Part shown: piece by piece, positions 3,240-53,792 of the stretch
How the letters are laid out: each line of letters starts with the position of its first letter
Position numbering within the stretch: the stretch's first letter is position 1
Assembly: GCA_001793095.1 (NCBI GenBank)
Contig: MGHG01000015.1
Coordinates: 1 to 54,496, forward strand
Source: Candidatus Woesebacteria bacterium RIFCSPLOWO2_01_FULL_39_23
GTDB taxonomy: Bacteria; Patescibacteriota; Microgenomatia; UBA8517
Length of the DNA: 54,496 nt
Direction: 5' to 3'
The notes under the pieces: generated by a model
The model's database searches: none
What the model was told of the DNA's origin: nothing
The model's input: only the letters and a program-made list of their open reading frames with translations
Program-made: the position numbers and the translations under genes

Positions 3240-3274
3240 CAATTTTTAGTCTTTAGTCTATCCTTCTTTGATAC

Positions 3275-3553
3275 ATGACTAAACGAGAACTTGTAGATAT
3301 CGTTGCACGAAAAGCACACTTGACAAAAAGAGCGGCTGAAGAAGCCATAAATGTATTTTTAAGTGAAATCGGACGTGCTCTTGGTAAAGGTGAATCAAGG
3401 ATAGTGCTTTCGGGCTTCGGAACTTTTAAAGTTAAATGGATGGAAGGTAAAACTGTTAAGATTCCGAAAAGAGATGAAACAGTAACAATAAAACGCCACA
3501 GGCTTCCCCGCTTTACTCCCGGGAATGATTTAAAAAGACAAATTAATCGATAA
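3275..3553 (+). CDS. hup: HU family DNA-binding protein
   Basis: MTKRELVDIVA..LSGFGTF..PRFTPG; TTGACA at 3236-3241 upstream. Confidence 0.9.
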   Translation: MTKRELVDIVARKAHLTKRAAEEAINVFLSEIGRALGKGESRIVLSGFGTFKVKWMEGKTVKIPKRDETVTIKRHRLPRFTPGNDLKRQINR

Positions 3554-5458: not shown

Positions 5459-5475
5459 TATTTTTTAGTAAAAAA

Positions 5476-6303: not shown

Positions 6304-6306
6304 ATG

Positions 6307-6371
6307 CCCCAGTAGTAGCTTGCCGCTCCCGAGGTCTACGTCCTCGCGTCACGGTGTCGCAACTACGGGGT
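6307..6371 (+). repeat. GC-rich intergenic REP-like stem-loop
   Basis: CCCCAGTAGTAGC ... GCAACTACGGGG outer imperfect stem with inner CGAGG..CCTCG hairpin. Confidence 0.5.
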
Positions 6372-6383
6372 AATAGCATATTT

Positions 6384-37232: not shown

Positions 37233-37415
37233 TTACCACGTAAGATACCAGAGTGCGGTTCCCGCTCCCCAGACAATAAAACCCATACCGGCGAGGGGTT
37301 TATTGAAGAAAAATAAAATAATAAGACCTACTAAAATAATAATGTGTATCATAAATCTTCTTAAGAACCTGTTTACTTTGTAGCTGTTAAAAAAGTTCGT
37401 TTGATTATAATCCAT
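37233..37415 (-). CDS. Small hypothetical membrane protein
   Basis: 60-aa ORF with two hydrophobic stretches. Confidence 0.4.
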   Translation of the reverse strand: MDYNQTNFFNSYKVNRFLRRFMIHIIILVGLIILFFFNKPLAGMGFIVWGAGTALWYLTW

Positions 37416-37506
37416 GATTATTTATGGTAACACAAATTTTCAAGGAAATTTTTTGTTTTATGCTAAATTTTGTTTCATCTGTACATTTAAATTTATTATA
37501 GGAACA

Positions 37507-37598
37507 TTCAAGAATGCCCCGCTAAGCGGGGATGAATTGAACGTTCATATGTCATCCTCCTTTAGAGGAGTACCCGAGTTTGACTCGGGAGGATGTCA
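37507..37598 (+). mobile_element. Miniature non-autonomous IS200/IS605-like element (PATE-like), copy 2
   Basis: TTCAAG-hairpin(CCCCGCTAAGCGGGG)-ATGAATTGA ... hairpin(CCCGAGTTTGACTCGGG)-AGGATGTCA. Confidence 0.6.
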
Positions 37599-37617
37599 TG
37601 GGTACAATCGAGTTATC

Positions 37618-39150: not shown

Positions 39151-39212
39151 CTCCTTAGTGCTTCTTATTTCAACAATTTAAAGCTATAATTCGTTATAGT
39201 ATTAAAATTAAT

Positions 39213-39938
39213 ATGAATCTTAAAGATAAAGTAGTATTAATTACCGGATCGAATCAAGGATTGGGGAAAGTTCTTGCTAAAAAGGTTGCAAAGGATGGAG
39301 CAAAAGTAATTCTTTTGGCAAGAAGAGAGAATCTTCTTAAAGAAGTTAAAGATGAAATAACTAAAGATGGAGGTTTAGCGGAGTACTTCGTTTGTGACAT
39401 TCGCGATAGTAAACAGGTAACAAAAACAGTAAATAATCTTATCCACAAATACAAAAAAATCGATGTCTTAGTAAATAATGCAGGAGTATGGACAGATGAT
39501 GAAAGTGAGAAGAGAAAACCAGAGTTAAGGAAAAACGCCTTTGATACCAATGTTTTTGGGCATGTTCAGGTTACTGAAGAAATATTACCTTACCTAAATA
39601 AAGACGAAAGTATTATCTTCAATACAATTTCTACAGCAGGAGTACCAGATATTCCATCAGGCAATAATTTGATGTGGAAATCATATGGAGCCTCAAAATG
39701 GGGAATGGTTGGTTATACACAGGCACTACGGGAATCTTTAAGAGATACTAATACAAAAGTAATCCAGTATTTTCCTGGTGGTTTTGAAAGCAATTTATAT
39801 GAGAATGCAGGAAGAGAAAATCCTCATAATCAGCCTTGGATGATGAAAACGGTAGATGTTGCAGACATAATTATATTTGCATTAACCAGACCGAAAGATG
39901 TTTATATGGAGAAAATTGTTGTGTCGAAAAAGAAGTAA
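39213..39938 (+). CDS. SDR family oxidoreductase
   Basis: TGSNQGLG, NNAG, YGASK. Confidence 0.92.
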   Translation: MNLKDKVVLITGSNQGLGKVLAKKVAKDGAKVILLARRENLLKEVKDEITKDGGLAEYFVCDIRDSKQVTKTVNNLIHKYKKIDVLVNNAGVWTDDESEKRKPELRKNAFDTNVFGHVQVTEEILPYLNKDESIIFNTISTAGVPDIPSGNNLMWKSYGASKWGMVGYTQALRESLRDTNTKVIQYFPGGFESNLYENAGRENPHNQPWMMKTVDVADIIIFALTRPKDVYMEKIVVSKKK

Positions 39939-39943
39939 ACATT

Positions 39944-40312
39944 ATGGCTAAACCTAACAAAATAAATTTAAAAGATAAGTTTAGTAAATTTACTAATTTA
40001 TGGAGTCCAAAAGTAATTGGTGAACTTCACGGGGTATCACTTAAAGTGGTTAAGGTTAAGGGTGAATTTAACTGGCATCATCATGATAATGAAGATGAAC
40101 TGTTTTGGGTTATTAAAGGCCAACTAACGATTCATTTTAGAGATGGTGATGAGATTCTTAATCCAGGAGAACTATTAATTATTCCCCATAAGATTGAGCA
40201 CAAGCCCGAAGCAAAAGAAGAGGCAGAGATAGTACTTATTGAACCTAAAGAAACACTAAACACTGGTAATGTAAAGACCGATAAAACAATTGAGAAATTA
40301 GAGGAGATATGA
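39944..40312 (+). CDS. Cupin domain protein
   Basis: GEFNWHHH..EDELF, PGE..IP...EHKP. Confidence 0.88.
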   Translation: MAKPNKINLKDKFSKFTNLWSPKVIGELHGVSLKVVKVKGEFNWHHHDNEDELFWVIKGQLTIHFRDGDEILNPGELLIIPHKIEHKPEAKEEAEIVLIEPKETLNTGNVKTDKTIEKLEEI

Positions 40313-40782
40313 CATTTGTTCCTAAAGACTTTAAAGTACCAGAAAAACTTAAGCAGACAGATTTTCTAATACGTAAATTATGCGCGAGAGATGTCTACCT
40401 TGATTATTTGGCTGTAATGTCGAGCATTGATGTTATTCAGAAAACCCGAGGGGGGAGTTGGCCAACCAAAGACCTAACATTTGAAGATGATTTAATTGAT
40501 TTAGCTTGGCACCAAAGAGAGTTTGAACATAAATCCTCTTTTGCTTACACAGTGATGAATAAAGACGAAACTGAATGTTTAGGTTGTCTTTACTTCTATC
40601 CTCCAAGATTCCGAAAAGAAGCTCCTGAAGGAACAGACGTTGATGTCAGTTTTTGGGTAACACAGAAAGCTTATGAACAGGGTTTATACGATAAGCTGTA
40701 CAAAACAATAAAAGAATGGCTTACAAAAGACTGGCCATTCAAGAAACCGTTTTGGACAAATAAAGAGATTCCCACAATATAA
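40309..40782 (+). CDS. GNAT-like protein
   Basis: DYLAVMSS, HQREF...SFAY, CLGCLY..P, VSFWV, WPF. Confidence 0.6.
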   Translation: MTFVPKDFKVPEKLKQTDFLIRKLCARDVYLDYLAVMSSIDVIQKTRGGSWPTKDLTFEDDLIDLAWHQREFEHKSSFAYTVMNKDETECLGCLYFYPPRFRKEAPEGTDVDVSFWVTQKAYEQGLYDKLYKTIKEWLTKDWPFKKPFWTNKEIPTI

Positions 40783-40788
40783 ATTAAT

Positions 40789-41262
40789 ATGGGTGATTTA
40801 AATAAACTAGCTAAAGAAGTAATTAAAAAAAATCAGTATCTTGCCTTAAGTACAGTAAGGGCTGATGGAAAGCCTTGGACCTGTATTTTGGCTTATATAT
40901 TTGATGATAATTACAACTTTTATTATGTTTCACTTCCTACTTCAGAGCACTCAAAACATATAGAAAAATCTAAGAATGTGTCATTTGCAATTTATGATTC
41001 AACTCAAGGATTTGGTTTAGGGGCAGGATTGCAGGTTGAAGCAGAAGCGGAAAAATTAAACGAAGAAAAAATCCCTGAAATATCAAAGATGTATTTTGAA
41101 AGGAAGTATCCCTACGGGAATATATCCAACGATTTTACCGTAGGTCTTAAAAAGATGATAGAGAGTGGAGTTTATTTCTTCTATAAGTTAACGCCAATTC
41201 ATATTTGGATAAATGACCCAAACGTTGATACAGATAGAAGAGTAGAAGTTTTTGCTAAATAA
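40789..41262 (+). CDS. Pyridoxamine 5'-phosphate oxidase family (FMN-binding split barrel)
   Basis: LSTV..DGKPW, S.HS..I...VSFAIYD, GLQV. Confidence 0.8.
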   Translation: MGDLNKLAKEVIKKNQYLALSTVRADGKPWTCILAYIFDDNYNFYYVSLPTSEHSKHIEKSKNVSFAIYDSTQGFGLGAGLQVEAEAEKLNEEKIPEISKMYFERKYPYGNISNDFTVGLKKMIESGVYFFYKLTPIHIWINDPNVDTDRRVEVFAK

Positions 41263-41305
41263 AGGAAGTTTATAGTATAAGCCACATATAGTAATTAAGA
41301 TTAAT

Positions 41306-41929
41306 ATGATCATAAATTATAAGAATAAAGAACAAGAAGTATTGGTTAAAACAAATCTCAAGAAACTTCTGGATAAAATACCCAATCTTCGTTCAGTAAT
41401 TGAAACCTTAAACAAAAACAATATTAAATATGGTTTATATGCAGGGGCTCACGTAGCGGTTTTGACTTCTAATAGAGAGTCAACAGATGTTGATTTGCTC
41501 GTAGCTGATGAAGATTTTGACAAGTTGAAAGAACTATTTCCAAATTCTGTAATAAAGGGTGGCAAAAGTAATATTTCAGATGGTATTTTTCTTTATCCAG
41601 GAGGAGAAGAGAAAATAGAGTTTATGGCTAATGCAAATATGATTGAGGATGGTAAAAAGTATCCTAATCGACTAACCGAAGCTGTTTGGAATAAAGTTGT
41701 AAGGTATGAAGTTGATGGACTTACTTTCCTAATGCTAGATCCTGTTGATACAGTGGTAATGAAAGCAATACTTCAGAGAGGAAAGGGACAAGGTAAACAT
41801 GATATAGAAGACATTGAGGCTATTGTTAATGTAATAGATCTGGATAAGGAATATCTCAAAGCACGACTTAAGGAGGTAGAAGCAGACAAAAGAGTGTTTA
41901 GAGTATTAAAGAAGTTCAATTTGATTTAA
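41306..41929 (+). CDS. Nucleotidyltransferase-like protein
   Basis: YAGAH...RESTDVDLLV motif and C-terminal K...R..K..D. Confidence 0.6.
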   Translation: MIINYKNKEQEVLVKTNLKKLLDKIPNLRSVIETLNKNNIKYGLYAGAHVAVLTSNRESTDVDLLVADEDFDKLKELFPNSVIKGGKSNISDGIFLYPGGEEKIEFMANANMIEDGKKYPNRLTEAVWNKVVRYEVDGLTFLMLDPVDTVVMKAILQRGKGQGKHDIEDIEAIVNVIDLDKEYLKARLKEVEADKRVFRVLKKFNLI

Positions 41930-41934
41930 AAAAT

Positions 41935-42792
41935 ATGTCGTGGCAATTATTAGTTGGAATTAGTGTTGTTTTGTATTCAGTTTCCGTGCTTCTTCAAAGA
42001 CTCCTTCTGAAAGATGAAAAGAGTGAACCCATATCTTTCTCTATATTTTTTCAGGTAGGAGTTGCGTTAACAATAGCTGTATTAGTTCTCTTAATTCACG
42101 GCAGTATTCCATTGCCAGACTTTTCAGAAATCTCGTGGAGTGTTTTAATAATGACAGTTTTATATGCCTTAGCGAATATTTCAATATTCAAATCTTTAAA
42201 AGCCACTGAAGCCTCACGATTTACTGTCATATTTTCAAGTCGAACAATATTTGCTGTAATTGCTACCTCAGTTGTTTTTTCCGAAACATTAACAATAAAT
42301 CAGTGGTTCGGAGCATTATTAATAATAATTGGTGTAATTATTGTTTCAATCAAAGAAACAAAATCAAAGATAAATAAAGGGGATTTACTGGCAATGATAG
42401 CAGCTGTTCTTTTCGGGCTTGCTAATACTAACGACAGATTTCTAGTCAAATTTTTTGATCCATACTCTTATGTGATTATTGGATTTCTTTTACCCGCAAT
42501 CTTAATTGGAATTATTTACCCGAAGAAAATTACTGGTATTAAGACGTATTTCAAAAAGGATTTTATTTATAAAATGATCTTACTCTGTACCTTATATGGT
42601 CTTTCAGCTTTAGCTTTCTTTACGGCATTACAGATTACTCCAAATGCCTCATTAGCATTCGCTATGTATGCGTTTAGTGGTGTTTTAACAGTTGTTTTAG
42701 CAATAATACTCCTTAAGGAAAAGGATTATCTTTCGAGAAAAATTGTAGGGGCGGTGTTAAGTTTGGTTGGTTTATTGTTAACGAACAAATGA
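41935..42792 (+). CDS. EamA/DMT family transporter
   Basis: 10 TM in two repeats ending FSETL and LLKEK. Confidence 0.88.
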   Translation: MSWQLLVGISVVLYSVSVLLQRLLLKDEKSEPISFSIFFQVGVALTIAVLVLLIHGSIPLPDFSEISWSVLIMTVLYALANISIFKSLKATEASRFTVIFSSRTIFAVIATSVVFSETLTINQWFGALLIIIGVIIVSIKETKSKINKGDLLAMIAAVLFGLANTNDRFLVKFFDPYSYVIIGFLLPAILIGIIYPKKITGIKTYFKKDFIYKMILLCTLYGLSALAFFTALQITPNASLAFAMYAFSGVLTVVLAIILLKEKDYLSRKIVGAVLSLVGLLLTNK

Positions 42793-43298
42793 AAAACCAT
42801 TTTTCAGAAAAAAAGTTAAGATACTTTATAGGAGAAACTATCAAAGAGGCTCAGATAGCTGTCAGTAAAGGTAATTATCCAATAGGGTCTCTTATTGTTG
42901 ATGAAAAAGGAAATATTATTGCGAAGTGTCAAAATGAAAACGCGACCAGAGATGATATAACTGCGCACGCAGAAGTTTTATGTCTGAGAAAAATGGGATC
43001 AAAAAGACTTGCGAAGGAAAATGGTAAAAGTTATTATTTATTTTCCTCTCTTGAACCTTGTGGGGGTTGTGGATTTTTCATGGCAAGAACTAATATTAAG
43101 ATAGTTTATATTGCTTCTTTAGATCCCTACAGATCTGGTATGAGCGTTCTTAAGAAATCAACTGACTTTTCTGAAATCTTTAAAAATATAAATGTAGTTG
43201 TTTGTGATTTTCTCGATTTAGCAACAAAATCTAAGTTGCTAATGAGAGATTATTTAATAAAAAAAGGTAAAAAGGAGGCAGCGAAAATATATGAGTAA
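42789..43298 (+). CDS. Nucleoside/nucleotide deaminase (TadA-like)
   Basis: PIGS, HAE, EPCGGC zinc motif. Confidence 0.88.
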   Translation: MKNHFSEKKLRYFIGETIKEAQIAVSKGNYPIGSLIVDEKGNIIAKCQNENATRDDITAHAEVLCLRKMGSKRLAKENGKSYYLFSSLEPCGGCGFFMARTNIKIVYIASLDPYRSGMSVLKKSTDFSEIFKNINVVVCDFLDLATKSKLLMRDYLIKKGKKEAAKIYE

Positions 43299-43767
43299 AG
43301 ACTACGATTTTGTATCAACCACAAATATGCTCATCGTTAAAGACGGGAAAGGTTTGTTTATCAAACGGAGCGAGAAATTAGAGAATTTTCCAGGTTGGTT
43401 GATGCTTCCTGGTGGAAAACAAGAGGTTGATGAAACTCCACAACAAGCAGCAATTAGAGAAACTTGGGAAGAAACAGGAATAAAAGTATTAAACCCCAAA
43501 CTCAGGGTTGTAGCCACACACAACCATTTTTACAGGAACAAGGTTTACTTAGTTTTTATCTTCCAATCAGATGAATTTTCAGGAGAACTTAAAGAATCAG
43601 ATGAAGGAACTCCACTATGGCTTCCTCTTGACGAAGTACTAAAAGATCCTAAGTTATACCCCGATCTTAAGCGTCATATTAAGTTAGTTTTGGAAGCAGA
43701 AAATGATCAAGTGATATTTACTTACCATAAATTTAATAAAGATTTAGAAATAATCGAGGAGGTTTAA
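43291..43767 (+). CDS. NUDIX hydrolase
   Basis: Nudix box GGKQEVDETPQQAAIRETWEETG. Confidence 0.92.
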   Translation: MSKDYDFVSTTNMLIVKDGKGLFIKRSEKLENFPGWLMLPGGKQEVDETPQQAAIRETWEETGIKVLNPKLRVVATHNHFYRNKVYLVFIFQSDEFSGELKESDEGTPLWLPLDEVLKDPKLYPDLKRHIKLVLEAENDQVIFTYHKFNKDLEIIEEV

Positions 43768-43769
43768 AT

Positions 43770-44234
43770 ATGAATGTAATAGTTAAAACAGCAAAAAGTG
43801 GAGATTGGGAAACCATACAGAAACTTAATAACCAAGTTTTTATTAATGACCAAGAGCATGATAATGATCTTGATATGAATTGGCCGTTTTCTCCAAAAGG
43901 TATAAAGTATTACAAAGATTTGGCGAGCGGGAAATACGGGAAATGCTTCATTGCATATCTTGATAATCAGCCCGTAGGTTATATAGCATTGGCCATTAAA
44001 GACTTCGGGTATCGAAAAAGTAAATATATTGAAATCGAAAATATCGGAGTTAATCCTCAACACCGGTCAAAAGGAATAGGTAAAATGCTAATGGATGAAG
44101 CTGTTGGGTGGGCAAAAGAACAAAAAGCTACAAAATTATACGTTTCTGCTTATTGGGGTAACGAGAGAGCTATAGATTTCTACAAAAAGAATGGTTTTTA
44201 CGAATCGGGTGTAGAAATGGATAAGAGATTGTAA
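43770..44234 (+). CDS. GNAT acetyltransferase
   Basis: VNPQHRSKGIGKML, NERAIDFYKKNGF. Confidence 0.92.
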   Translation: MNVIVKTAKSGDWETIQKLNNQVFINDQEHDNDLDMNWPFSPKGIKYYKDLASGKYGKCFIAYLDNQPVGYIALAIKDFGYRKSKYIEIENIGVNPQHRSKGIGKMLMDEAVGWAKEQKATKLYVSAYWGNERAIDFYKKNGFYESGVEMDKRL

Positions 44235-44311
44235 GTCACTCCTTTTCTGGGACTTCTTTAGTAAATATAAATAACGACAGCTACATCTGGCGAGATTCTG
44301 CATAGGGAAGA

Positions 44312-44515
44312 ATGTCGGGGCAAGTTGAAAGACTTCCTGACCTTCTATATGGATATCCTTTCTATGAGCAAAACGACATTAATCAGTCTGAGATTTATTT
44401 CGGAGACTGGAAGATGTATGTCATCGGGGATAGACAGACAATCTCTGTCAGAACAACAACTGAAGGTGGAGAAGCTTGGAGAAGAAACTCAATGGAGGTT
44501 AAATTTTCTTCCTAA
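44312..44515 (+). CDS. Hypothetical protein (possible remnant)
   Basis: 67-aa ORF with purine-rich sequence upstream; no motif. Confidence 0.3.
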   Translation: MSGQVERLPDLLYGYPFYEQNDINQSEIYFGDWKMYVIGDRQTISVRTTTEGGEAWRRNSMEVKFSS

Positions 44516-44575
44516 GATAGCTTCTTGACATTTTATTTAAGTATAGTTAAGATATACTCAAGATATCTTAACATA

Positions 44576-45274
44576 ATGACCAAAAAAAGCGGAAAAATAG
44601 TTAAGTGTGTCTGGTGCGGCAAGTCTTTATATAAGATACCAAGTCGAGTTCGTAAGTTTAATTTTTGTACGCCTGAGCATTATAGAACTTTTCTAGCCAG
44701 TCCAAAAAATAAAACACTAAGTAAAGGTTGGAAACATAGTGAAGATGCAAAACAAAAGATAAAACTAGCAAATTTGAGTAGGAATTATGATGAAATTTTT
44801 ACAAAAGAAACTCGAAAAAAACTTGCAGAAAGCGCTGGAAATAAAATATGGACTAAAGAGGCTAGAGATAATGCTAGAAAATCTCATTTAGGTAAAAAAC
44901 TTTCTTTAGAACAGATACGGAAAATAAAAGATCATGCAAAATATGATTGGAGAAATAAATCTTGGCGAGGTCGTTATTCAAGTTATGTTGCAAAGCATGT
45001 TTGGGCTGCAAAACATATAAGGAAAACTAGATGTGAATATAAAGACTCTGGTTTCGGTCCATGTAATGGTAAGTTACAGTTAGCAAATATCGATCACAAA
45101 TATTATAAGAGAATCAAGGACTGGAAAGTATTATGTAAATTCCATCACGACTTATACGATTATAGACATGGCTTAAGAAAATTGACAAGTAAAACCAAAC
45201 GCATGTATGTAAGATTTGATCCTCTTCAATTAAGAGACTTTACTGTTGATGGGATAATAGTCAGCTCTACATAA
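44576..45274 (+). CDS. Zn-finger/NUMOD3/HNH-like endonuclease
   Basis: CVWCGK..FC; NUMOD3-like GWKHSEDAKQKI and GKKLS; C-terminal H.W..CE..ANIDH.Y.R...W..LC..HH..YD. Confidence 0.6.
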   Translation: MTKKSGKIVKCVWCGKSLYKIPSRVRKFNFCTPEHYRTFLASPKNKTLSKGWKHSEDAKQKIKLANLSRNYDEIFTKETRKKLAESAGNKIWTKEARDNARKSHLGKKLSLEQIRKIKDHAKYDWRNKSWRGRYSSYVAKHVWAAKHIRKTRCEYKDSGFGPCNGKLQLANIDHKYYKRIKDWKVLCKFHHDLYDYRHGLRKLTSKTKRMYVRFDPLQLRDFTVDGIIVSST

Positions 45275-45279
45275 ATAAT

Positions 45280-45636
45280 ATGAGAACGACTTACAAGAAA
45301 ATGAATAATATAGAAGATATACTAAGGCGCTTGAGTTTGAAGCAATTAGAAGCGCTTGCGGTTTTTATACCAACAGGCGAGAGAGCTAGTACACATATGA
45401 GTATTGAGACGGCTAGCAATACTATTCACACTGCGGTAAATGACAATATAAAAAGAAAGAAAGCAATTGGGGGTGTAATTTCGACTTTGTGTAAGATTGA
45501 AACTCCTTATGGCAAACTTATTTTGCCAGCCGCATGGACTAAGGAAGAAGGAATGCGTTGGACTCTAAATGAGAAAGTTATAAATAGACAGGAACTGAAG
45601 GAGATATTGTTACAGATACCAGGATTAAATATATGA
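45280..45636 (+). CDS. Hypothetical protein
   Basis: 118-aa ORF coupled to neighbours. Confidence 0.55.
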   Translation: MRTTYKKMNNIEDILRRLSLKQLEALAVFIPTGERASTHMSIETASNTIHTAVNDNIKRKKAIGGVISTLCKIETPYGKLILPAAWTKEEGMRWTLNEKVINRQELKEILLQIPGLNI

Positions 45637-45881
45637 GCAGGTTGAAAAATCAGAAAACATTTCAAAAAGATGGTTGGAGAAGAATGTTATGTAAAGCTTG
45701 TGCGCGTATTATTGGCGAAAGTCACCTTAATGAAAAAAATAGTAGAGAGATCAGATGTAAGGAATGTGGAAACATCCAAATAATAGCCCCTCCGAGAAAA
45801 GGTACTAAGAACGGAAAAATTGGATACTTTTGGTATGAACCAGGTGATAGCTGTTTTACGGCTATAGTGTATAACAATTGA
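45633..45881 (+). CDS. Small zinc-ribbon protein (Mu Com-like)
   Basis: CKACARII...EIRCKECG CxxC/CxxC. Confidence 0.5.
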   Translation: MSRLKNQKTFQKDGWRRMLCKACARIIGESHLNEKNSREIRCKECGNIQIIAPPRKGTKNGKIGYFWYEPGDSCFTAIVYNN

Positions 45882-45921
45882 ATTTTGAGTTAATTTAGGT
45901 TCCTGTTTAAGGAAATATTAG

Positions 45922-45969
45922 AGAACTCAGCTTTACGCATCTTCAGATGTCATGAGCTGAGTTTTTTTA
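45922..45969 (+). terminator. Long hairpin with T tract
   Basis: AGAACTCAGCT...CATCTTCAGATG...AGCTGAGTTTTTTT. Confidence 0.65.
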
Positions 45970-45979
45970 TGGAGAGGTT

Positions 45980-46138
45980 ATGAAGAAGAGAGAAAAATAC
46001 AAAGTAGTAAATAATCTCAATTCAGAGAGCGATAAAAATATGATAGCAAAAATATTAGGAAAAGAATTTTTAATATTTCTTAACAAAAACATTAGAGCAT
46101 ATAAAGATAGTAATAATTCAAAAAATGAAAGGGAGTGA
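45980..46138 (+). CDS. 52-aa hypothetical protein (not in ORF track)
   Basis: GGAGAGGT SD then MKKREKYKVVNNLNSESDKNMIAKILGKEFLIFLNKNIRAYKDSNNSKNERE*. Confidence 0.5.
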   Translation: MKKREKYKVVNNLNSESDKNMIAKILGKEFLIFLNKNIRAYKDSNNSKNERE

Positions 46139-46368
46139 TAATAATGGCTATTTATAAAGTGGATCTGGAGGAAATTTGGATAAGGTCGATATATACCCGT
46201 GCGAGTTCTGAAAAGAAAGCGCTTGAGAAAATTTTAAATGGAGATAACGAGGCAAATCTAATAGCTGATAATTTTAACTACGATCGAATAAATACATCAA
46301 CAAAAGATAATTGGTTAGTTGAAAAAGTGGAGAAGAAAGATTTACCAAGTAAATTAAAACAATTTTGA
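46135..46368 (+). CDS. Hypothetical protein
   Basis: 77-aa ORF with SD-like AAGGGAG. Confidence 0.5.
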   Translation: MIIMAIYKVDLEEIWIRSIYTRASSEKKALEKILNGDNEANLIADNFNYDRINTSTKDNWLVEKVEKKDLPSKLKQF

Positions 46369-46450
46369 TAAAGAACAATTAGATTAAACGACCGTAAGTC
46401 AGAGAGACTGAAAAGTTAATGAAAATATGAGATAGGTGGGGGTGATAAAA

Positions 46451-46717
46451 ATGAGTAAAAAAAGGAAAAAAAAGGACAGAAAGTTTAAATGTCTTACTTT
46501 GAATGAGTTAAGACTTATAAGCGATAGCTTAGTGGCTTATAAAGCACTATATGCTATGAAGCTATCCAATTTATATAGAGAATATTTTGACAAATCAGAA
46601 GTGATGGATACTTTTACTGAAGATATTCAAAAAGCAAATTTTGAATGGCCAGATAAAGATGATTTTTGTAACGAGATAGAAAGAGAAATAAGCACGAGAG
46701 AAGTTAATGAAGATTAA
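46451..46717 (+). CDS. Hypothetical protein
   Basis: GGGGGTGAT SD before ATG. Confidence 0.55.
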   Translation: MSKKRKKKDRKFKCLTLNELRLISDSLVAYKALYAMKLSNLYREYFDKSEVMDTFTEDIQKANFEWPDKDDFCNEIEREISTREVNED

Positions 46718-46861
46718 TTAGATTAAATAAGGATTTAACTCAATTTTTAGCCTTAAAAATAAACTATAAGTTATTTAAATTTATTATATGTAACCTTAAA
46801 TAATAATCAATAGCCAAAAATAATCTATGTATTTTATTAGATTAAATCCTTATTAAAACGC

Positions 46862-47050
46862 ATGGAAGAAAAGATATTAACAATTAGAGAAGTGGCAACT
46901 TTACTCAAATATTCTGAAGCTACTATACGATCATGGGTAAAGTCCGGAAAATTACCAGCATTTAAGATAGGAAGAAAGTATAGGATTCGGCTTAGGGATA
47001 TAAATAAACACTTTAAACAGCATTTGCAGGAGGATAATGAAGATGAGTAG
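46862..47050 (+). CDS. Excisionase-family HTH protein
   Basis: LTIREVATLL..SEATIRSWVKSGKLPAFKIGRKYRI. Confidence 0.88.
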   Translation: MEEKILTIREVATLLKYSEATIRSWVKSGKLPAFKIGRKYRIRLRDINKHFKQHLQEDNEDE

Positions 47051-47942
47051 TTATAAGTTAGAAACTGCGATAAATGGTTTTCTAGGCTATTTAAGAAGTG
47101 TTAAACGCCTCTCAAACAGGACTATTAAAGCATATCAATATGATTTGACAAGCTTTTTAGGTTATTTCAGAGATAATAACGTCTTAGATATAGAAGACAT
47201 ATCGAAAGAGCATATCAACCAATATTTATCTTGTATAACATTATCAAAAACAGGTTCAACAGCAAATTACAATAGAAAATTATCTTGCATAAGGTCTTTT
47301 TACAATTATTTAGGGCAAAAAGGATTCAATAAAGCTTTTATTGAAGAATATCGGCCAGTTAAGAACCACTCTAGACAAATAAGTTATTTAACGGAGGTCG
47401 AAAAGAAAAAATTTATAGATACAGTTAAATATCACTCTACCCCTTTTTATAAAATTCGAGATTTATCAATAATATCACTCTTTCTAAATACAGGAATTAG
47501 AGTAAGTGAGCTTGTTAATCTTAGGATTGACGATATAGATTTTAGAAAGGAAGGCTTCAGTTATATTCGAATTACGAGAAAAGGCGGCAGTGAGGAAACT
47601 CTTCCATTATCGAATGAGGTTGCAAAAAGAATACAGAAATATTTAAAGAAACGTCCACAAATTAAAGAAAGAAGAGTATTTATAGGCCGTAAAGGAACAA
47701 ACTTACAAGCTAACTCTATATATTACTTAGTCAAAAAATATTTAAGAAAAGCCGATATAAATAAGAAAAAAATGGGACCCCATATGTTAAGGCATACAGT
47801 AGGGGTCAGCCTTCTGAAAAAGGGAGTTGATTTGTTTACCATTCAAAAGATCTTAGGTCATAAAAGATTGGACACTACTTCTGTTTACCTACATGTAGAA
47901 CCGGAAGATATTGAACGCGCTATTAATCTTATCACCATATGA
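47037..47942 (+). CDS. XerC/D-like tyrosine recombinase
   Basis: SAM-like N-domain (LS.RT..AY..DL); catalytic TGIRVSE, RKGG, HMLRH, LGH, TSVY. Confidence 0.93.
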   Translation: MKMSSYKLETAINGFLGYLRSVKRLSNRTIKAYQYDLTSFLGYFRDNNVLDIEDISKEHINQYLSCITLSKTGSTANYNRKLSCIRSFYNYLGQKGFNKAFIEEYRPVKNHSRQISYLTEVEKKKFIDTVKYHSTPFYKIRDLSIISLFLNTGIRVSELVNLRIDDIDFRKEGFSYIRITRKGGSEETLPLSNEVAKRIQKYLKKRPQIKERRVFIGRKGTNLQANSIYYLVKKYLRKADINKKKMGPHMLRHTVGVSLLKKGVDLFTIQKILGHKRLDTTSVYLHVEPEDIERAINLITI

Positions 47943-49627
47943 ATATGTTAGGAACATATGACCATCATGCAACTTATGTAAATGAAGATAGTGGGCTCCA
48001 AAAGTCAAAATTTATAGTGGCAGTATATATACGAGTCTCCGGTGAATCGCAAGCCGAAAAAGACAAAGTCAGCTTAGACATTCAAAAGAAAGACTCATTG
48101 AATTATGCAAACAAACAATGTTGGAGAGTATTTAAAGTTTATGAAGATGTTTTAACTGGCTATTTAGACTTTGAAAACAGAATCGGAGGAAAAGAACTTT
48201 TGGATGATGCAAGACAAGGAAAATTTAATTTAGTACTACTTTGGGATAGTGATAGGACTGGCAGGGACCCTGAAGCTTTGGCAGCAAAGCTTTTTAGGCA
48301 TTATATGAGAGAGTTGGGAATACAAGTTACGTCACTTGACCAGCCCCTTATTCTAAAAGACCCAGATGAATATAAATATGACCCATATGATGAGGGACAA
48401 ATATTTATGGAAACAATACATGACTTACAAAGTGCTACTACAGTAAGCAAGTTTAGACGTAGAAGTATGGAGTCAAAGCAAGAGAGGGCTAGGGGTGGAA
48501 AGATGCTTAATACACCGCCCTACGGTTATAAGCTTGAGCCCCTTCGAGACGAAAATGGAAACATCATTATTAAAAAAGATGGCAGGATCGTTTATAAAAG
48601 AGTCGTTCAAGAGAAAGAAAAACCTATCGTTTTGAGAATTTATCATGAATACGTATTTAAAGGTAAAAGCATGAATGGAATTAGAGATCAGTTAAATGCT
48701 GAAGGTGTACCTACACGTAAAGGCAGACATTGGGAGAGAGCTATGGTTGCCAGAATATTGAAAAATCCAGTTTATTTTGGAGCATTAATCTATAACAAAT
48801 ATTTTAGAAGAAAAAATGCTTTAACAGGCACAACGAAAATGGGAAAAAATCCGTTCGAGAAATGGATTGTAGTTCCTCCCGGACAAACGGAACATGAGGC
48901 AATTATTAAAAAAGATTTATTTGATAAAGCTCAAGAGGTAAGGAAAGCAAAATTAAGATTAGGATCGGTGGCAGTTTATAACGACTTCTTATTAAGTGGA
49001 TTATCTAAGTGTGAAATATGCGGCAGTAAGATGTATCGAACGAAAGTAAAAACAACTTATACGAGGAAAAGTGATGGAGTTACAACAAAATCTCAAAGTA
49101 ATGGTTATATATGCGGAAGATGGCAGAGGTTTAGAGATACAGAAAGAAACTATATATCTGAGTCAGAGTTAAAGAGTGCTGTAATAAACGACTTAAAACG
49201 TCTAAAAGATAACCCAGATGTCTTAAAAGGATTTTTAGCTGAAAGCGATAAAAAAAAGGTAGATGACATTTCGAGTAGGTTGGAGTTTTTAAGGAGTAAC
49301 CTATCAAAAATAGACAGCAGATATAGTCGTCTAAGGCGTGCTTACGAATATGGAAGTTTATCAATGACTAAGTTTAATGATGCGGTAGACGAGTTAGGGC
49401 ATGAAGAAGGGGTTATGAGGGAACAAGTTGTAAAACTTGAGAGCCAGATAAAAGATGAACAAAGAAGGGAGCTTACCAGAGAAGATTTTAAACAGGCAAT
49501 TAACAGGTTTGAGGAAATATTTCTAAAAGGAGACATTGCTGACCAAAAAGCATTTTTAAGATCTCTAATACAAGAAATTGTGGTTGGTAATAAGAAGATA
49601 ACTATCAATTATTTAATTAGTAGATAA
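47939..49627 (+). CDS. Large serine recombinase (integrase)
   Basis: YIRVS catalytic Ser, DRTGR, PPYGY, ILKNPVYFG, HEAII, zinc ribbon LSGL.KCEICG..YIC, coiled coil. Confidence 0.95.
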   Translation: MNMLGTYDHHATYVNEDSGLQKSKFIVAVYIRVSGESQAEKDKVSLDIQKKDSLNYANKQCWRVFKVYEDVLTGYLDFENRIGGKELLDDARQGKFNLVLLWDSDRTGRDPEALAAKLFRHYMRELGIQVTSLDQPLILKDPDEYKYDPYDEGQIFMETIHDLQSATTVSKFRRRSMESKQERARGGKMLNTPPYGYKLEPLRDENGNIIIKKDGRIVYKRVVQEKEKPIVLRIYHEYVFKGKSMNGIRDQLNAEGVPTRKGRHWERAMVARILKNPVYFGALIYNKYFRRKNALTGTTKMGKNPFEKWIVVPPGQTEHEAIIKKDLFDKAQEVRKAKLRLGSVAVYNDFLLSGLSKCEICGSKMYRTKVKTTYTRKSDGVTTKSQSNGYICGRWQRFRDTERNYISESELKSAVINDLKRLKDNPDVLKGFLAESDKKKVDDISSRLEFLRSNLSKIDSRYSRLRRAYEYGSLSMTKFNDAVDELGHEEGVMREQVVKLESQIKDEQRRELTREDFKQAINRFEEIFLKGDIADQKAFLRSLIQEIVVGNKKITINYLISR

Positions 49628-49642
49628 AGGGGGTGATTAAAC

Positions 49643-50161
49643 ATGAAGGAAACAGAAAAGATTAAAAAATGCCCTCATTGTGATAAAGATATTTCATTTC
49701 GAGCTAAGAAATGTCCTTATTGCCAGTCAGATTTGCGAAGTTGGGTAAATAGACATCCCATTTTAGCTTTCTTAAGTGCAATAATCTTATTACCGTTCTT
49801 TTTGATGATAGTGGTTGGATCAACTACAGATACTAATGAGTCAGTAGAACAAACGCCACGAAGAGAATCTTTTAGGGCTAATGTGAATTTTACAGGTACC
49901 CAATTTGTAATAAGTAATTTGGATGATGTGGATTGTTTGGGATCGCAAATGAGTATAAATGGAGGATTACTCAAAGGAGGTTATGAATTGAATGACTACA
50001 ACTTGAGAGCAGGTGAGACTTATACAGTAGGTGCTCTGCAGTTTGCTGATGATAGCGGTAATAGGTTTAATCCATTAACGACTAAACCTAAAACTTTTTA
50101 TATTTACTGTCGAGGTAATAATGAATTGCATGGTACGGGGTGGGGAGGAGAGTTTAACTAG
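49643..50161 (+). CDS. Zinc-ribbon membrane protein
   Basis: CPHC..CPYC, TM helix, extracytoplasmic domain; SD AAGGGGGTGAT. Confidence 0.65.
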   Translation: MKETEKIKKCPHCDKDISFRAKKCPYCQSDLRSWVNRHPILAFLSAIILLPFFLMIVVGSTTDTNESVEQTPRRESFRANVNFTGTQFVISNLDDVDCLGSQMSINGGLLKGGYELNDYNLRAGETYTVGALQFADDSGNRFNPLTTKPKTFYIYCRGNNELHGTGWGGEFN

Positions 50162-50299
50162 TCGAGGATACTTTATCATTAAAGTTAAGTGTTTTCTCTG
50201 AGGCTAGCTTGATGAATAAAAATTGAGATTTTATAAAAGATGATTACCCATACCTCTTTTAGGTAAAATTGATTTTTAATTCAGGTAAAAAAATGCTAT

Positions 50300-50950
50300 T
50301 TACTTCCCTTTTAAAAGGTTTATAAGTTTCCCTTGGACTACAAAATTGTTAACAATTGGACTGTATTTTGGATTAGCGGGAACTAGAATTGGCCAACCAT
50401 CAACGATTTTGAATTTTTTCAAAGTAACTCCCCTATCTGGTATCAAAGCTGCTACGATATCTCCATCATTTGCTATAGGCTGTGAGGCAATGATAGCTGT
50501 ATCGCCATCATCTATTCCAGCACCAATCATGCTATCACCTGTAACTTTTACAGCAAATACATTTGTAATACCTTTTGTGTCTTGTATTGAGACATCAATT
50601 TTAGAATCACTGAATTCGTCGACCATAGAAGCGTAGCCGGCAGGTATTGGGGAGGTCATTAAGGGAATGGAGATTGTTTCTTCTTCCTCTGCAAATGGTA
50701 CGGAAACTGTTTTATTAGAAGAAGTTCCTAGTAGAGCGGGGTTTAAATAAATACCTCTCGCGCCACGGTTCCTTGTAATATAACCAGCTTCTTGTAATGC
50801 TTCGAGTTGCAAGATTACGCCCCGTGTGGATTTGATGCCAGATGCTTTTTGAATTTCTCTTATTGTGGGCGAATTACCAAAAGTGTTTACTTGAGTAACT
50901 ATAGTATCTAATACTTTTTTCTGCCTATCTGTGAGATTTTTATAGTACAT
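50300..50950 (-). CDS. lexA: LexA-like repressor (wHTH plus S24 peptidase)
   Basis: LTDRQ..PTIREI..L...GYI.R..ARGI; AG cleavage site (IPAG), GDSM Ser, TLKK Lys. Confidence 0.9.
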   Translation of the reverse strand: MYYKNLTDRQKKVLDTIVTQVNTFGNSPTIREIQKASGIKSTRGVILQLEALQEAGYITRNRGARGIYLNPALLGTSSNKTVSVPFAEEEETISIPLMTSPIPAGYASMVDEFSDSKIDVSIQDTKGITNVFAVKVTGDSMIGAGIDDGDTAIIASQPIANDGDIVAALIPDRGVTLKKFKIVDGWPILVPANPKYSPIVNNFVVQGKLINLLKGK

Positions 50951-51014
50951 TAATAATTTGTTTACTTGGTATACTTGACTTATGTTTACCTAAAATGTTA
51001 CCATTCTTGCAGTT

Positions 51015-51041
51015 CTTATGTCAAGCATATTTTGGCATAAG
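51015..51041. promoter_or_regulatory. Candidate operator in the lexA/CBASS divergent region
   Basis: CTTATGTCAA-N7-TTGGCATAAG inverted repeat (1 mismatch) overlapping a minus-strand TTGACA at 51019-51024. Confidence 0.45.
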
Positions 51042-51054
51042 AGGAAATCAAAGA

Positions 51055-51348
51055 ATGATAATAGCAGATTACAACTTCGAAGGTCCGTGGTCTTTAGATC
51101 AAATCTTCAATGATGTTCCTGGTATTTATGTAATTTATACTTCCCAAAAATGGTTGGATGTGGGAGAAACAGATAAATTAGGTCAACGCCTTAATGGAGA
51201 AAACCATGAGAGGAAATCTCAGTGGATTTTGAATTCTAATAGACTTCCAATAAGTATTGCATTTTTACAGGTTGACAACATAGCTCTTAGATTAGTGGTT
51301 GAGTCTCGGTTAAGACAGGTATTGTCTCCCGTTTGTGGAGAAAAGTAA
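51055..51348 (+). CDS. Small GIY-YIG-like nuclease
   Basis: PGIYVI...DVGET..L..RL...H..W...R...E pattern. Confidence 0.6.
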   Translation: MIIADYNFEGPWSLDQIFNDVPGIYVIYTSQKWLDVGETDKLGQRLNGENHERKSQWILNSNRLPISIAFLQVDNIALRLVVESRLRQVLSPVCGEK

Positions 51349-51350
51349 AA

Positions 51351-51902
51351 ATGAATTTAGACAAAATAAGCTCTGCATTAACTATTTGGGATATTGTCAA
51401 AGTAGCATTTGGATTCTTGGTTCTCTTTTTTGGATTCCTGATTATATTTTGGAGGTCAATTAAAGTCTTTTTTCGATTAGGTAGAAATTTAGGTCGTAAA
51501 GTTTTTGTCTTTTGTCCTCCCGGAGGAAACAGGAATTCTGGAACTAATAAAAATATGGAACGGGAGCTAATAGTTCTCAGAAATTCTGGTTATTTTGAAG
51601 TACCTAAACAACCAATAACTGATTTTAATTCGATTGATGTTGTTGATATCGAAAAAGCTGGAGTGATCGTATTGGGATATCATCAGGAAATGAAAAACTT
51701 TAATGAATTTGTTGACTTAGTTAGACATGTCGGTAAACCTCTTATTATTTACACTTTTGAGTTGGGGTATCAACTTAAAGAAGAACATAGAAAAAAAGTT
51801 AAAGGTTACAAATGGTATGTGTTATCGAGTATGCCGCTTCGATTAGTGAGCGACCTCTTTGCTGTTATGGCTTCATATAAATATGAACAAGAACGAAATT
51901 AA
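51351..51902 (+). CDS. Putative CBASS effector: single TM plus Rossmann-like soluble domain (possibly NARF)
   Basis: N-terminal TM, alternating beta/alpha pattern (VFVF, VIVLG, LIIY); overlaps the CD-NTase start. Confidence 0.5.
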   Translation: MNLDKISSALTIWDIVKVAFGFLVLFFGFLIIFWRSIKVFFRLGRNLGRKVFVFCPPGGNRNSGTNKNMERELIVLRNSGYFEVPKQPITDFNSIDVVDIEKAGVIVLGYHQEMKNFNEFVDLVRHVGKPLIIYTFELGYQLKEEHRKKVKGYKWYVLSSMPLRLVSDLFAVMASYKYEQERN

Positions 51903-53313
51903 TACCACTCTAGAAGAATTTTGTAGAAAATATTTATCCCCTTCATCAGACGAGAGGACGTCAATTTCCAAACTCTATAAACAGCTTCAAGATATATTGC
52001 CAGGTAATGAGATTTTTCAAAGTGGTTCATATAAAAGGGAAACAGCGGTAACCCCCGTTCATGACTTAGATGTAATTTGGGTGTTACCTGAATCTTTACA
52101 GGTATCAGGAGAGGAGTTGTTTTCTAGAATCAGTCAAGGAGAACCTTTTTATTTTGATGTCAAAAAACCGCTTGAAAGTTTAGCTTCGGTGTTGACTGAC
52201 GGTTATAGAAAAGTTGGTATGGATATAAAAATAGACTTGTCGCAAACACACTCTGTAAATATATCCTTTCCTAAAGAAAAAGACTTCTCAGTAGACGTTG
52301 TTCCTGCTCTGAGGTCAGGTAGAAAAAACAAGTATGGAGATGATGTCTACCTGGTACCTGAAATTCAGAAGTTTAGTCGTGGAAGGCGAGTTGAAATGTA
52401 TAAAGCATACGGTGAAAAAATTCCGTGGATTTTGTCTGACCCAAAAGGTTATACAAGTCAGTCATTAGAGCTTAATTCGAATCTAAGTTATAGAAAAACA
52501 GTTAAATTTGCCAAAGTTTGGAAGAAATCGTGCAATGCGAGTTTGATAGACTTTGAGTTGAAATCTTTCCATTTAGAGCTGATTGTTGTCGATATATTTC
52601 TCCGAAACAAAAGTATAAATTTTTTTGATGCTATCTGTCTTTTTTTCAGCAACCTGGACACATGGCTAGCAGCTCCAACAATACCAGATATGGCAGACTG
52701 TAATATGTTTGTAGATAGTTATTTAAATGATGACGTTGCAGGCTTGCAAAGAGAACGAGCTATAAACTTTGCTTCAAAAACCCTAGATAGGCTGCAGAGT
52801 ATGTTACTAAAAAATAATATCGATGAGCTTTATTTATTGCTCAGGGAATCTTTAATTTCCACACCTCCATGGGGCGCTAACTCGTCTGCGAGAAAATTAG
52901 AAATTACTTGCCAGATTGAACGTAGAGAGAAAGATAAATTTCGCAACTCAACTAATTTGAAAAGAATAAAGAGTAATCTGCCAAGTTATGCGCTTCAAGC
53001 GATTAACGGACCGAAGCCTATGATCTCTGGGGAATATATTGGAAAAGAATATTTTTTACTTTTTACTCCTCTGATTGATGGATTAGAGTATGATGATATA
53101 CGATGGTTGGTTGTGAATAACGGTATAGAAGCTTTAGATATTGCCAGAATAGGAGGCTGGAGGGGTAATGAGTTTCATTTCTGTGAGAAAGATTCTATTT
53201 CTCGAGAAGAGCATACAGAATATCCAGGTATGCATTGGATTGAGTGCTATGTAATTAAAGAAGGAGTCTGCGTAGGCTCAGGCAAGTTCTACGTAGGAAT
53301 TAGATCAGATTGA
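51883..53313 (+). CDS. cGAS/DncV-like nucleotidyltransferase (SMODS) with C-terminal AGS-C domain
   Basis: QSGSYKRETAV.P.HDLDV, VDVVPA, SDP, K.WK, KSFHLEL; AGS-C motif W.VVNNG.EA..RG...E.T.Y.G.HWIECY. Confidence 0.88.
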   Translation: MNKNEINTTLEEFCRKYLSPSSDERTSISKLYKQLQDILPGNEIFQSGSYKRETAVTPVHDLDVIWVLPESLQVSGEELFSRISQGEPFYFDVKKPLESLASVLTDGYRKVGMDIKIDLSQTHSVNISFPKEKDFSVDVVPALRSGRKNKYGDDVYLVPEIQKFSRGRRVEMYKAYGEKIPWILSDPKGYTSQSLELNSNLSYRKTVKFAKVWKKSCNASLIDFELKSFHLELIVVDIFLRNKSINFFDAICLFFSNLDTWLAAPTIPDMADCNMFVDSYLNDDVAGLQRERAINFASKTLDRLQSMLLKNNIDELYLLLRESLISTPPWGANSSARKLEITCQIERREKDKFRNSTNLKRIKSNLPSYALQAINGPKPMISGEYIGKEYFLLFTPLIDGLEYDDIRWLVVNNGIEALDIARIGGWRGNEFHFCEKDSISREEHTEYPGMHWIECYVIKEGVCVGSGKFYVGIRSD

Positions 53314-53378
53314 GACTCGTTTTGTTTCTCTTCATATCTGGAAACTACAACCAACCGTTGCAATATTTTTAAAATAAA

Positions 53379-53413
53379 AACAAACTAAATGATATGCACG
53401 TTGACGTCCCAAG
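53379..53413 (+). other. attR junction (P arm, core TGCAC, B' arm)
   Basis: AACAAAC-TA-AATGATATG-CA-CGTTGACGTCCCAAG. Confidence 0.85.
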
Positions 53414-53792
53414 TGTAGAGGTGCAGAAGTTAACCGAAAGTTCAACCCGTTCGGCCAGCTCAGGGTTGATGCTGAGCAAAGTCGAAGCATCGAAGGAAAT
53501 TCAAAAACGAGTACAAAGCGCAAGGAATATTCAAATTAAAAGATTCAAGGGAACCTTTATTAAATCGAACGCCGAAATGAGTACTAAGGACGTTAAAAAG
53601 TATTGCGAAATGTCGACGGACTGCAGAATGATGATGATATCAGCAACGGCTAGTATGAATTTAACAGCCAGGTCTTACTTTAAAGTAATCAAAGTTGCCA
53701 GAACAATCGCTGATTTAGAAGGAGTAAAAAATATTACAACAAATCATCTAGCAGAAGCACTTCAATATCGGCCTCAAGAGGAAGAGTTTTAA
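53397..53792 (+). pseudogene. comM: Displaced native 3' end of comM
   Basis: HVDVPSVEVQKL...RVQSARNIQ..NLTARSY.KVIKVARTIADLEG...EALQYRPQ, collinear with 38782-39150. Confidence 0.9.
53442..53490. repeat. Pair of REP-like units in frame in the native comM tail
   Basis: TCAACCCGTTCGGCCAGCTCAGGGTTGA plus ATGCTGAGCAAAGTCGAAGCAT (reverse complement ATGCTTCGACTTTGCTCAGCAT). Confidence 0.7.

Follow-up and report, generated by a model that had tools for sequence, protein, structure and literature searches.

What does a small GIY-YIG-like gene do at the head of an antiviral operon, and what controls that operon? These questions are raised by positions 50300–53313 of contig MGHG01000015.1 (54 496 nucleotides (nt) in its entirety, hereafter the window) of Candidatus Woesebacteria bacterium RIFCSPLOWO2_01_FULL_39_23, a bacterium of the Patescibacteria type whose genome comprises 1.13 Mb (18 contigs, 99.45% complete). 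An initial annotation, made by reading the DNA alone, described a minimal cyclic oligonucleotide-based antiphage signaling system (CBASS) with an atypical effector set and a GIY-YIG-like gene. The analysis presented here points, with moderate confidence, to an SOS-gated defence operon in which a LexA paralog would be the switch, a GIY-YIG nuclease the leader, and a standard type I CBASS the cargo.

The locus consists of the following features:

50300–50950, minus strand: LexA-type S24 autopeptidase repressor, 216 amino acids (aa), divergent from the operon
50951–51054: divergent control region, 104 nt
51055–51348, plus strand: gene 1, 97-aa GIY-YIG protein
51351–51902, plus strand: gene 2, 183-aa effector candidate
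51883–53313, plus strand: gene 3, 476-aa cGAS/DncV-like nucleotidyltransferase (CD-NTase)

The three tightly packed genes of 97, 183 and 476 aa are present as originally described; the minus-strand lexA-type gene at 50300–50950, inside the same range, went unmentioned in that description. The three co-directional plus-strand open reading frames (ORFs) lie within 50995–53313, with a gap of 2 nt between genes 1 and 2 and an overlap of 20 nt between genes 2 and 3. The earliest possible starts would yield proteins of 117, 189 and 484 aa; the starts used here are those supported by homologues, the 97-aa form of gene 1 being found in 32 of 32 aligned homologues.

Gene 1 has 35 homologues of 73–139 aa, most of them 96–98 aa long. 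Loci with the GIY gene were drawn from species genomes, metagenomes and a 400-genome sample of the phylum and, with duplicates merged (L004 is the window, L006 is L002, and L011 and L012 are L010), amount to 23 distinct loci; L026, whose GIY-YIG protein is canonical, longer and only weakly matched, and a match on a Sulfitobacter plasmid were set aside. The named relatives of the module come from WWE3, Levybacteria and ‘Patescibacteria group’ assemblies. The upstream neighbour of the GIY gene could be judged in 20 of the 23 loci, the other three having short upstream sequences, and was rechecked with a LexA profile in six frames:

S24 repressor, divergent (10 loci): window, L002, L003, L005, L009, L010, L016, L019, L025, L039
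S24 repressor, co-directional (2 loci): L021, L022
HTH_3 and Peptidase_M78 pair (1 locus): L007
neither repressor (7 loci): L013, L015, L017, L020, L023, L024, L040

An S24 repressor adjoins the GIY gene in 12 of these 20 loci. The genes on the other side of the GIY gene form a motley collection:

type I CBASS: window
CBASS with an E2 gene: L002
AriAB-like ATPase: L003
Prok-E2_E and JAB-ThiF fusion: L005
Schlafen/AlbA_2 proteins: L008, L009
HEPN and DUF2971/PDC-S31: L010
Cas4-like nucleases: L014, L040
ApaLI restriction enzyme and methylase (type II restriction-modification, R-M): L019
PIN_12: L024
DUF1508: L016
unknown proteins: L007, L015, L023
second GIY copy: L022
nothing: L039

The contig of L025 ends inside the GIY gene. 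The cargo changes even among close relatives: GIY proteins 69–72% identical to the one in the window head four different cargoes, namely a CBASS with an E2 gene, an E2/E1-JAB set, an unknown 319-aa protein and a Schlafen protein. When starts are placed at the first in-frame codon, as called by script, the downstream gene begins no more than 12 nt after the GIY gene, or overlaps it, in 9 of the 16 loci where that gene is co-directional.

Intact solo copies of the GIY gene lie in L020 (6992–7288), where rpsJ and rplC flank it on the other strand, and in L023 (6992–7285), just after dnaK; each is preceded by 400–500 nt of non-coding DNA, a placement that resembles an insertion. The second copy in L022 (959–1156) directly follows the first and has diverged from it (31% identity over 58 aa). 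The Sulfitobacter match (L041; Sulfitobacter dubius conjugative plasmid NZ_CP085149.1) is a distant 101-aa relative at 4989–5294 (29% identity, E 9e-4, no Pfam match), located between a short hsdS fragment and the hsdM gene of a type I R-M operon.

Is the GIY gene, then, part of the CBASS? If the three genes made up one system, with the GIY-YIG protein as a CBASS-specific accessory or second effector, the 2-nt gap between the GIY and effector genes would be expected, and so would the recurrence of the order GIY, transmembrane protein and CD-NTase in L002/L006. However, a CD-NTase is encoded in just 2 of the 23 distinct loci, and the highly similar GIY proteins of L005, L007 and L008 head cargo that is not CBASS. 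The reverse question, whether relatives of the CBASS have the GIY gene, was addressed with L035 and L002. L035, the one independent locus examined, contains a homologous CBASS with a divergent S24 gene, but a search for the GIY protein comes up empty there at thresholds as lax as E≤10; a 59-aa DUF1508 gene fills the slot. The expected co-occurrence of the GIY gene with homologous CBASS breaks down there, and a CBASS-specific role is very improbable. The initial placement of this gene among the CBASS components is thus abandoned: it accompanies the repressor, heads many unrelated defence cargoes, and a related CBASS does without it. The GIY protein is a portable leader gene product, not a part of CBASS. 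It also belongs to the regulated side rather than being the regulator, because it is retained in L007, where the type of repressor changes.

The small DUF1508 (YegP-like) gene is found at 6564–6743 in L035, between the S24 repressor and the CBASS, and again at 2778–2963 in L016, this time behind the GIY gene. A further small leader that recurs among loci may thus be at hand.

The repressor in the window is a LexA-type protein by several measures. It scores 119.5 bits against TIGR00498 (cut-off 110.95) and matches LexA_DNA_bind (PF01726, 5.6e-16) and Peptidase_S24 (PF00717, 1.6e-19), as well as the PHROG families ‘transcriptional repressor’ and ‘CI-like repressor’. In contrast to the GIY proteins with 69–72% identity, the adjacent repressors of the module are only 21–60% identical to the one in the window. 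Ser140, Lys178 and the cleavage-site Gly105 are present in each of 12 aligned repressors, the site being A-G or C-G. The host genome encodes RecA and three lexA-type genes, of which the window copy is the third. The lexA gene on contig 9, a housekeeping copy in a housekeeping context, has no adjacent GIY gene. The other paralog (L028; contig 4, 53156–56482) is a 205-aa ORF at 1237–1854 of that locus, followed after 2 nt by an ORF at 1857–3326 with HSDR_N_2 and N6_Mtase domains. LexA paralogs thus stand at the head of defence-type genes twice in this genome. Methyltransferases accompany the repressor elsewhere: in L003, LexA (DNA-binding and S24 domains) is fused to an N6_N4 DNA methyltransferase in a single 630-aa ORF (5024–6916, minus strand), and a methyltransferase gene comes after lexA in L009 and L025. 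When the LexA paralog and the GIY protein were modelled as a complex, the score was 0.01 (mark 0.32), which counts neither for nor against an interaction.

The 104-nt control region contains face-to-face promoter-like sites (minus strand, 51024–50995; plus strand, 50975–51004) and an imperfect palindrome at 51017–51039 that may serve as the operator. There is a perfect palindrome at a similar position in L002, and in L016 and L019 palindromes cover the −35 box. Across the loci, the search for operators recovered palindromes of the TGTCAAG/CTTGACA and TGCAAAT-N5-ATTTGCA types that overlap −35-like hexamers in some loci, and no motif common to all loci. A look-up of RNA data sets covering 50200–53400 yielded none; the DNA itself occurs in groundwater or soil habitats.

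The leader protein itself is, judging by its structural model, a genuine GIY-YIG fold, as initially proposed. The AlphaFold2 (AF2) model, built from an alignment of 33 sequences, has a pLDDT (predicted local distance difference test) of 95.6 and a pTM (predicted template modelling score) of 0.86. In Foldseek, ranks 1–9 are all structures of the UvrC N-terminal GIY-YIG domain (five entries; E 1.4e-3 to 1e-2, template modelling (TM) score 0.56–0.68, probability 1.00), followed by T4 EndoII, Eco29kI and I-TevI. At the sequence level, hhalign links the family of gene 1 to a bona fide PF01541 protein (probability 94.7, E 6e-8), and 21 of 80 sampled members of the wider family match PF01541 directly (E≤0.01, best 1e-8). 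An exhaustive profile search yields 710 cluster representatives with E≤0.001, of which 166 reach E≤1e-10; almost all are 93–115 aa long. The catalytic residues of the GIY-YIG superfamily are the Tyr of GIY, the Tyr of YIG, an Arg, a His or Tyr, a Glu and an Asn. In 80 sequences of the present family, Y25, R45, H51 and E83 reach at least 90% conservation, and W57 and C94, the latter in a C-terminal Cys-Gly, are invariant and peculiar to it. The protein probably acts as a nuclease.

Compared with the characterized members of the superfamily (the UvrC N-terminal domain, PDB 1ycz and 1yd6; T4 EndoII; R.Eco29kI; I-TevI), gene 1 shares the fold, the Tyr of the GIY motif and the conserved Arg, His and Glu; it differs in being only 97 aa long, with no accessory DNA-binding or partner-binding domain, and in the invariant Trp57 and Cys-Gly. 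One of the 80 sampled members bears a TIR_2 domain; no longer fused form was found at E≤0.01 among 8000 scored candidates, which is weak evidence. The family profile retrieves only ARF1 from PDB sequences, at chance level (E 0.7–0.9), and the GIY protein has no match in phage records.

The GIY-YIG protein could alternatively be the nuclease of a LexA-linked R-M cassette or a selfish, homing-type nuclease that carries its neighbours along. The methyltransferases fused to or following the repressor in L003, L009 and L025 would suit such a role, as would the solo copies inside the conserved loci L020 and L023 and the distant relative in the type I R-M operon of the Sulfitobacter plasmid. However, no methyltransferase adjoins the pair in the window, L002, L005, L010, L016 or L039. 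GIY-YIG restriction and homing enzymes carry a DNA-recognition domain, for which 97 aa leave no room, and Eco29kI and I-TevI match less well than UvrC does. Altogether, an R-M or homing nuclease seems extremely improbable.

What does the leader precede in the window? By their family matches, genes 2 and 3 make up a minimal CBASS of type I, in agreement with the initial annotation on this point. Gene 3 scores 36.9 bits against SMODS (PF18144, cut-off 26.5) and, at the C-terminus of the cyclase, 54.9 bits against AGS_C (PF18134, cut-off 26.7), the latter alignment covering model positions 62–129 of 129, that is, residues 410–482 of the 484-aa form. It matches the PADLOC model Cyclase (PDLC00785) at 2e-73 and the NCBIfam model CBASS_cyclase_b at 3.6e-16 (59.6 bits, under the cut-off of 200 for that model). 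The active site is intact in the 476-aa translation: G48-S49, D61-L-D63 (the DxD motif) and D137, which is assigned as the third Asp by motif context rather than by structural alignment. The protein is remote from solved structures, its best sequence match in PDB being CdnC (E 0.003). As initially stated, none of the five proteins encoded in 49643–53313 matches Cap2/Cap3 (E1/E2/JAB), HORMA or TRIP13 in Pfam, PADLOC or NCBIfam.

The classification of type I CBASS reportedly goes back to Millman et al. 2020. The locus resembles the systems of this type with an AGS-C-fused CD-NTase in its two-gene set of cyclase and effector, in the C-terminal AGS-C domain and in the lack of Cap2/Cap3 and HORMA/TRIP13; it differs in the host, which has a 1.13-Mb genome of the Patescibacteria type, in the distance of the cyclase from solved structures, and in the effector, a protein with one transmembrane helix and a flavodoxin-like domain. 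A preprint puts the share of type I CBASS operons with the AGS-C fusion at about 40% and describes the fusion as restricted to type I (bioRxiv 10.1101/2023.05.21.541620), so that on this account the fusion in the window is typical rather than unusual. In the CBASS relatives L002 (8038–8874) and L035 (8375–9103), the cyclase is followed by a third gene with a PADLOC ‘E2’ match and a SEC-C motif; the window has no E2 gene and carries AGS-C on the cyclase instead.

The 183-aa protein encoded by gene 2 can reasonably be regarded, on sequence grounds, as the CBASS effector. Its hydropathy profile indicates one N-terminal transmembrane helix (peak at residues 15–33), followed by an Arg/Lys run and then by a predicted cytosolic alpha/beta domain (residues ~48–180) that is flavodoxin/receiver-like, with an AF2 pLDDT of 84.7. 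The assignment is reasonable because of the PADLOC matches, to C3a59 ‘trans-membrane’ over the full length (2.9e-20) and to CBASS ‘Effector 1TM’ (1.5e-6), and because of the repeated pairing with a CD-NTase. Ten homologues of the effector were found in one search. In L035, which comes from an unrelated Patescibacteria genome, a homologue lies directly ahead of the CD-NTase, and a distant one (18% identity, PADLOC Mem_02) occupies the same position in L002. Since this transmembrane protein is already present in PADLOC models, the description of the effector set as atypical is not borne out.

The effector had also been said to be unlike patatin, SAVED, STING and SLATT proteins, and possibly NARF-like. 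The former is borne out at the sequence level, with no match to these families in Pfam at E≤0.1; the latter finds no support in PF20299, which matches neither the protein (E≤0.1) nor anything in the whole genome (E≤10). The sole lead to NARF is row 4 of the Atlas structure list, a 278-aa cluster with 30% NARF-bearing members (TM score 0.67 by query). The 189-aa form of the protein matches no Pfam or NCBIfam family at E≤0.1 and no PHROG family. In structure comparisons, VIA-align returns a flat list of receiver domains (Z ~11), Foldseek gives weak GTPase, receiver and DNPH1-like matches, and the Atlas list includes a ThsB-type TIR cluster at a TM score of 0.50; none of SAVED, STING, CARF or TIR stood out in the PDB fold lists. 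Of 35 pattern matches to this family in viral contigs, none was confirmed. No publication was found that characterizes the effector family, although PADLOC models it, or that pairs NARF with SMODS.

How might such an operon work? The LexA paralog is predicted to repress two promoters, its own and the divergent one of the three-gene operon; if the operon is gated by this paralog, it would hence respond to DNA damage and depend on RecA. RecA filaments, expected to arise upon DNA damage or phage replication, would stimulate self-cleavage of the repressor at the Ala-Gly site through the Ser140/Lys178 dyad and so allow transcription of the operon. The CD-NTase–AGS-C protein would then sense infection and produce a cyclic nucleotide, and the single-pass effector may bind this nucleotide via its cytosolic flavodoxin-like domain, oligomerize and damage the membrane, resulting in abortive infection. 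The last steps are modelled on other transmembrane effectors.

Several findings weigh against this reading. The GIY gene comes without any repressor in 7 of the 20 assessable loci, among them L020 and L023 with their solo copies amid housekeeping genes, and the LexA–GIY pair in L039 has no defence cargo. In the control region, the palindromes differ among loci, and the number of promoter-like sites in 50100–53500 (9) is no higher than expected from shuffles (10.8). The GIY protein of the window has no PF01541 match at E≤0.1, the Tyr of the second motif (‘YIG’) is replaced by an invariant Asp35 in the family of gene 1, in which this family again departs from the rest of the superfamily, and a counterpart of the motif Asn could not be identified; because of the latter two features, catalysis is not assured. 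Finally, the fold matches of the effector are to generic flavodoxin, receiver and GTPase folds, which do not by themselves speak for ligand binding.

The cargo-free pair in L039 implies that the pair could be an SOS repair unit beside which defence genes merely land. LexA and the GIY protein would then be a two-gene system with an SOS-induced incision nuclease, comparable to Cho of E. coli, and defence genes would gather around it as at any hotspot, with no functional tie. The location of the L039 pair, between groEL and housekeeping genes, and the UvrC incision domain as the best structural match are consistent with this possibility. However, the window pair resides on a mobile island, described below, with the third lexA copy of the genome, the housekeeping lexA having no GIY neighbour; the gaps of 0–12 nt or overlaps in 9 of 16 loci argue for a single transcript of leader and cargo; L007 keeps the GIY gene while an HTH_3 and M78 pair replaces LexA; and 97 aa are too few to accommodate the UvrB-binding region that Cho and UvrC possess. 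A repair unit accordingly appears unlikely.

A more ambitious version of this idea assigns a function to the nuclease. LexA and the ~97-aa GIY-YIG protein would be a portable ‘damage switch’, in which the nuclease cuts or nicks phage or host DNA, yielding more RecA-activating single-stranded DNA and locking the cargo ON in a feed-forward loop, for at least eight kinds of defence systems in Patescibacteria and beyond. Such a loop is speculative and, as it stands, rather unlikely.

The surroundings of the operon bear on one more explanation. The operon is part of a ~14.6-kb island integrated in comM, with the following features in the window:

37414–39150, plus strand: comM (Mg-chelatase-like; Pfam ChlI, Mg_chelatase, Mg_chelatase_C)
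38775–38784: left attachment core TGATCTGCAC, match to the pattern TGATNTGCAC
47037–47942, plus strand: tyrosine recombinase of the island (Pfam Phage_integrase, 8.8e-38)
47939–49627, plus strand: large serine recombinase of the island (Pfam Resolvase, Recombinase, Zn_ribbon_recom)
49643–50161, plus strand: zinc-ribbon membrane protein (Pfam Zn_ribbon_3)
53390–53399: right attachment core TGATATGCAC, match to the pattern TGATNTGCAC
53394–53792, plus strand: displaced original C-terminus of comM (Pfam Mg_chelatase_C, 6.4e-31)

The 10-nt core TGATNTGCAC occurs in the window only at 38775–38784 and 53390–53399. Alignment with the displaced remnant, which is 68% identical to residues 474–576 of the intact ComM over 103 aa, indicates that the 3′ end of comM past position 38784 is derived from the island; comM remains intact because the inserted element brings a new 3′ end. 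With the shared core at 53390, the stop codon of gene 3 is therefore 76 nt ahead of the right core, so that the operon indeed ends next to attR, as initially noted, at a computed distance that replaces the estimate of ~65 bp. Contigs from four DNA runs aligned to the window break at 38775–38804 and 53462–53486. A joint from 38778 to 53686 in these runs, with 22 letters on the shorter side and 90% likeness, is too weak to be claimed as an island-free allele and may stem from comM of other organisms.

In such a setting, the S24 protein could be the immunity repressor of the element (cI/SetR-like), the GIY gene taking the position of a cro or early gene, with induction serving excision or transfer and the CBASS being a moron-type passenger. 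Both recombinases and an excisionase-like helix-turn-helix ORF lie 0.7–3.4 kb upstream on the island, the PHROG matches of the repressor are to ‘transcriptional repressor’ and ‘CI-like repressor’ families, and L002 has phage-like or replication-like neighbours. Against this, the protein exceeds the LexA equivalog cut-off, the recombinase genes are outside the divergent operon (upstream of lexA, in the same direction as the operon), and the pairs in L039 and L019 have no recombinases in the stretches examined. An element immunity repressor is, on balance, improbable.

The zinc-ribbon protein, with its single membrane helix, is kept beyond the repressor in the three closest loci (window, 49643–50161; L002, 4363–4863; L005, 105–731), with tblastn matches at 2e-24 in L002 and 9e-11 in L005, the L005 version containing DUF4352. 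The remainder of the island (39213–46717) encodes enzymes of small-molecule and nucleotide metabolism (SDR, cupin, PNPOx-like, NTP_transf_5, cytidine/dCMP deaminase, NUDIX and GNAT proteins) and an EamA transporter; the ORFs at 44525–45274, 45280–45636 and 46436–46717 have no family match.

How does the presumed switch compare with the known regulators of defence? Divergent genes for an S24 repressor and a small damage-response protein are familiar from UmuDAb–DdrR of Acinetobacter and from the lexA genes of Gram-positive bacteria with a divergent SOS gene. The layout is the same, but those pairs are not known to be tied to swappable defence cargo, and a relation of the GIY protein to their small partners is not expected. 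CapH/CapP, CapW and CapK/CapS are three recently described families of DNA-damage-responsive regulators of immune operons and the closest published concept. The module described here resembles these regulators in that a divergent repressor module, expected to be damage-responsive, is common to many unrelated defence operons. The domain combination of CapH/CapP, HTH_3 and Peptidase_M78, precedes the GIY gene only in L007. In the window, a CapH/CapP pair (helix-turn-helix and M78, ImmA/IrrE-type) was considered as the regulator and rejected, the gene there encoding an S24 LexA-type protein. The difference from these regulators is a single self-cleaving S24 LexA paralog, predicted to be RecA-dependent, together with a conserved GIY-YIG gene heading the operon. 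The main text of the CapK/CapS paper (PMC13373217) contains no occurrence of ‘LexA’, ‘GIY-YIG’ or ‘S24’, and no published description of a defence module combining LexA and GIY-YIG was found. The CBASS adds a new member to a known kind of system; as a form of damage-responsive defence regulation, the LexA/GIY leader module would be new.

The CBASS itself extends type I systems with an uncharacterized single-transmembrane effector to 1-Mb bacteria of the symbiotic type and adds little beyond that. The leader module has broader implications. It suggests that bacteria with tiny genomes use extra copies of LexA to keep abortive-infection systems silent; in the genome analysed here, two of the three lexA copies are located directly beside defence-type genes. 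If confirmed, the module would directly link antiviral immunity with the classical SOS pathway and would provide a testable context for a so far unnamed GIY family with hundreds of cluster representatives.

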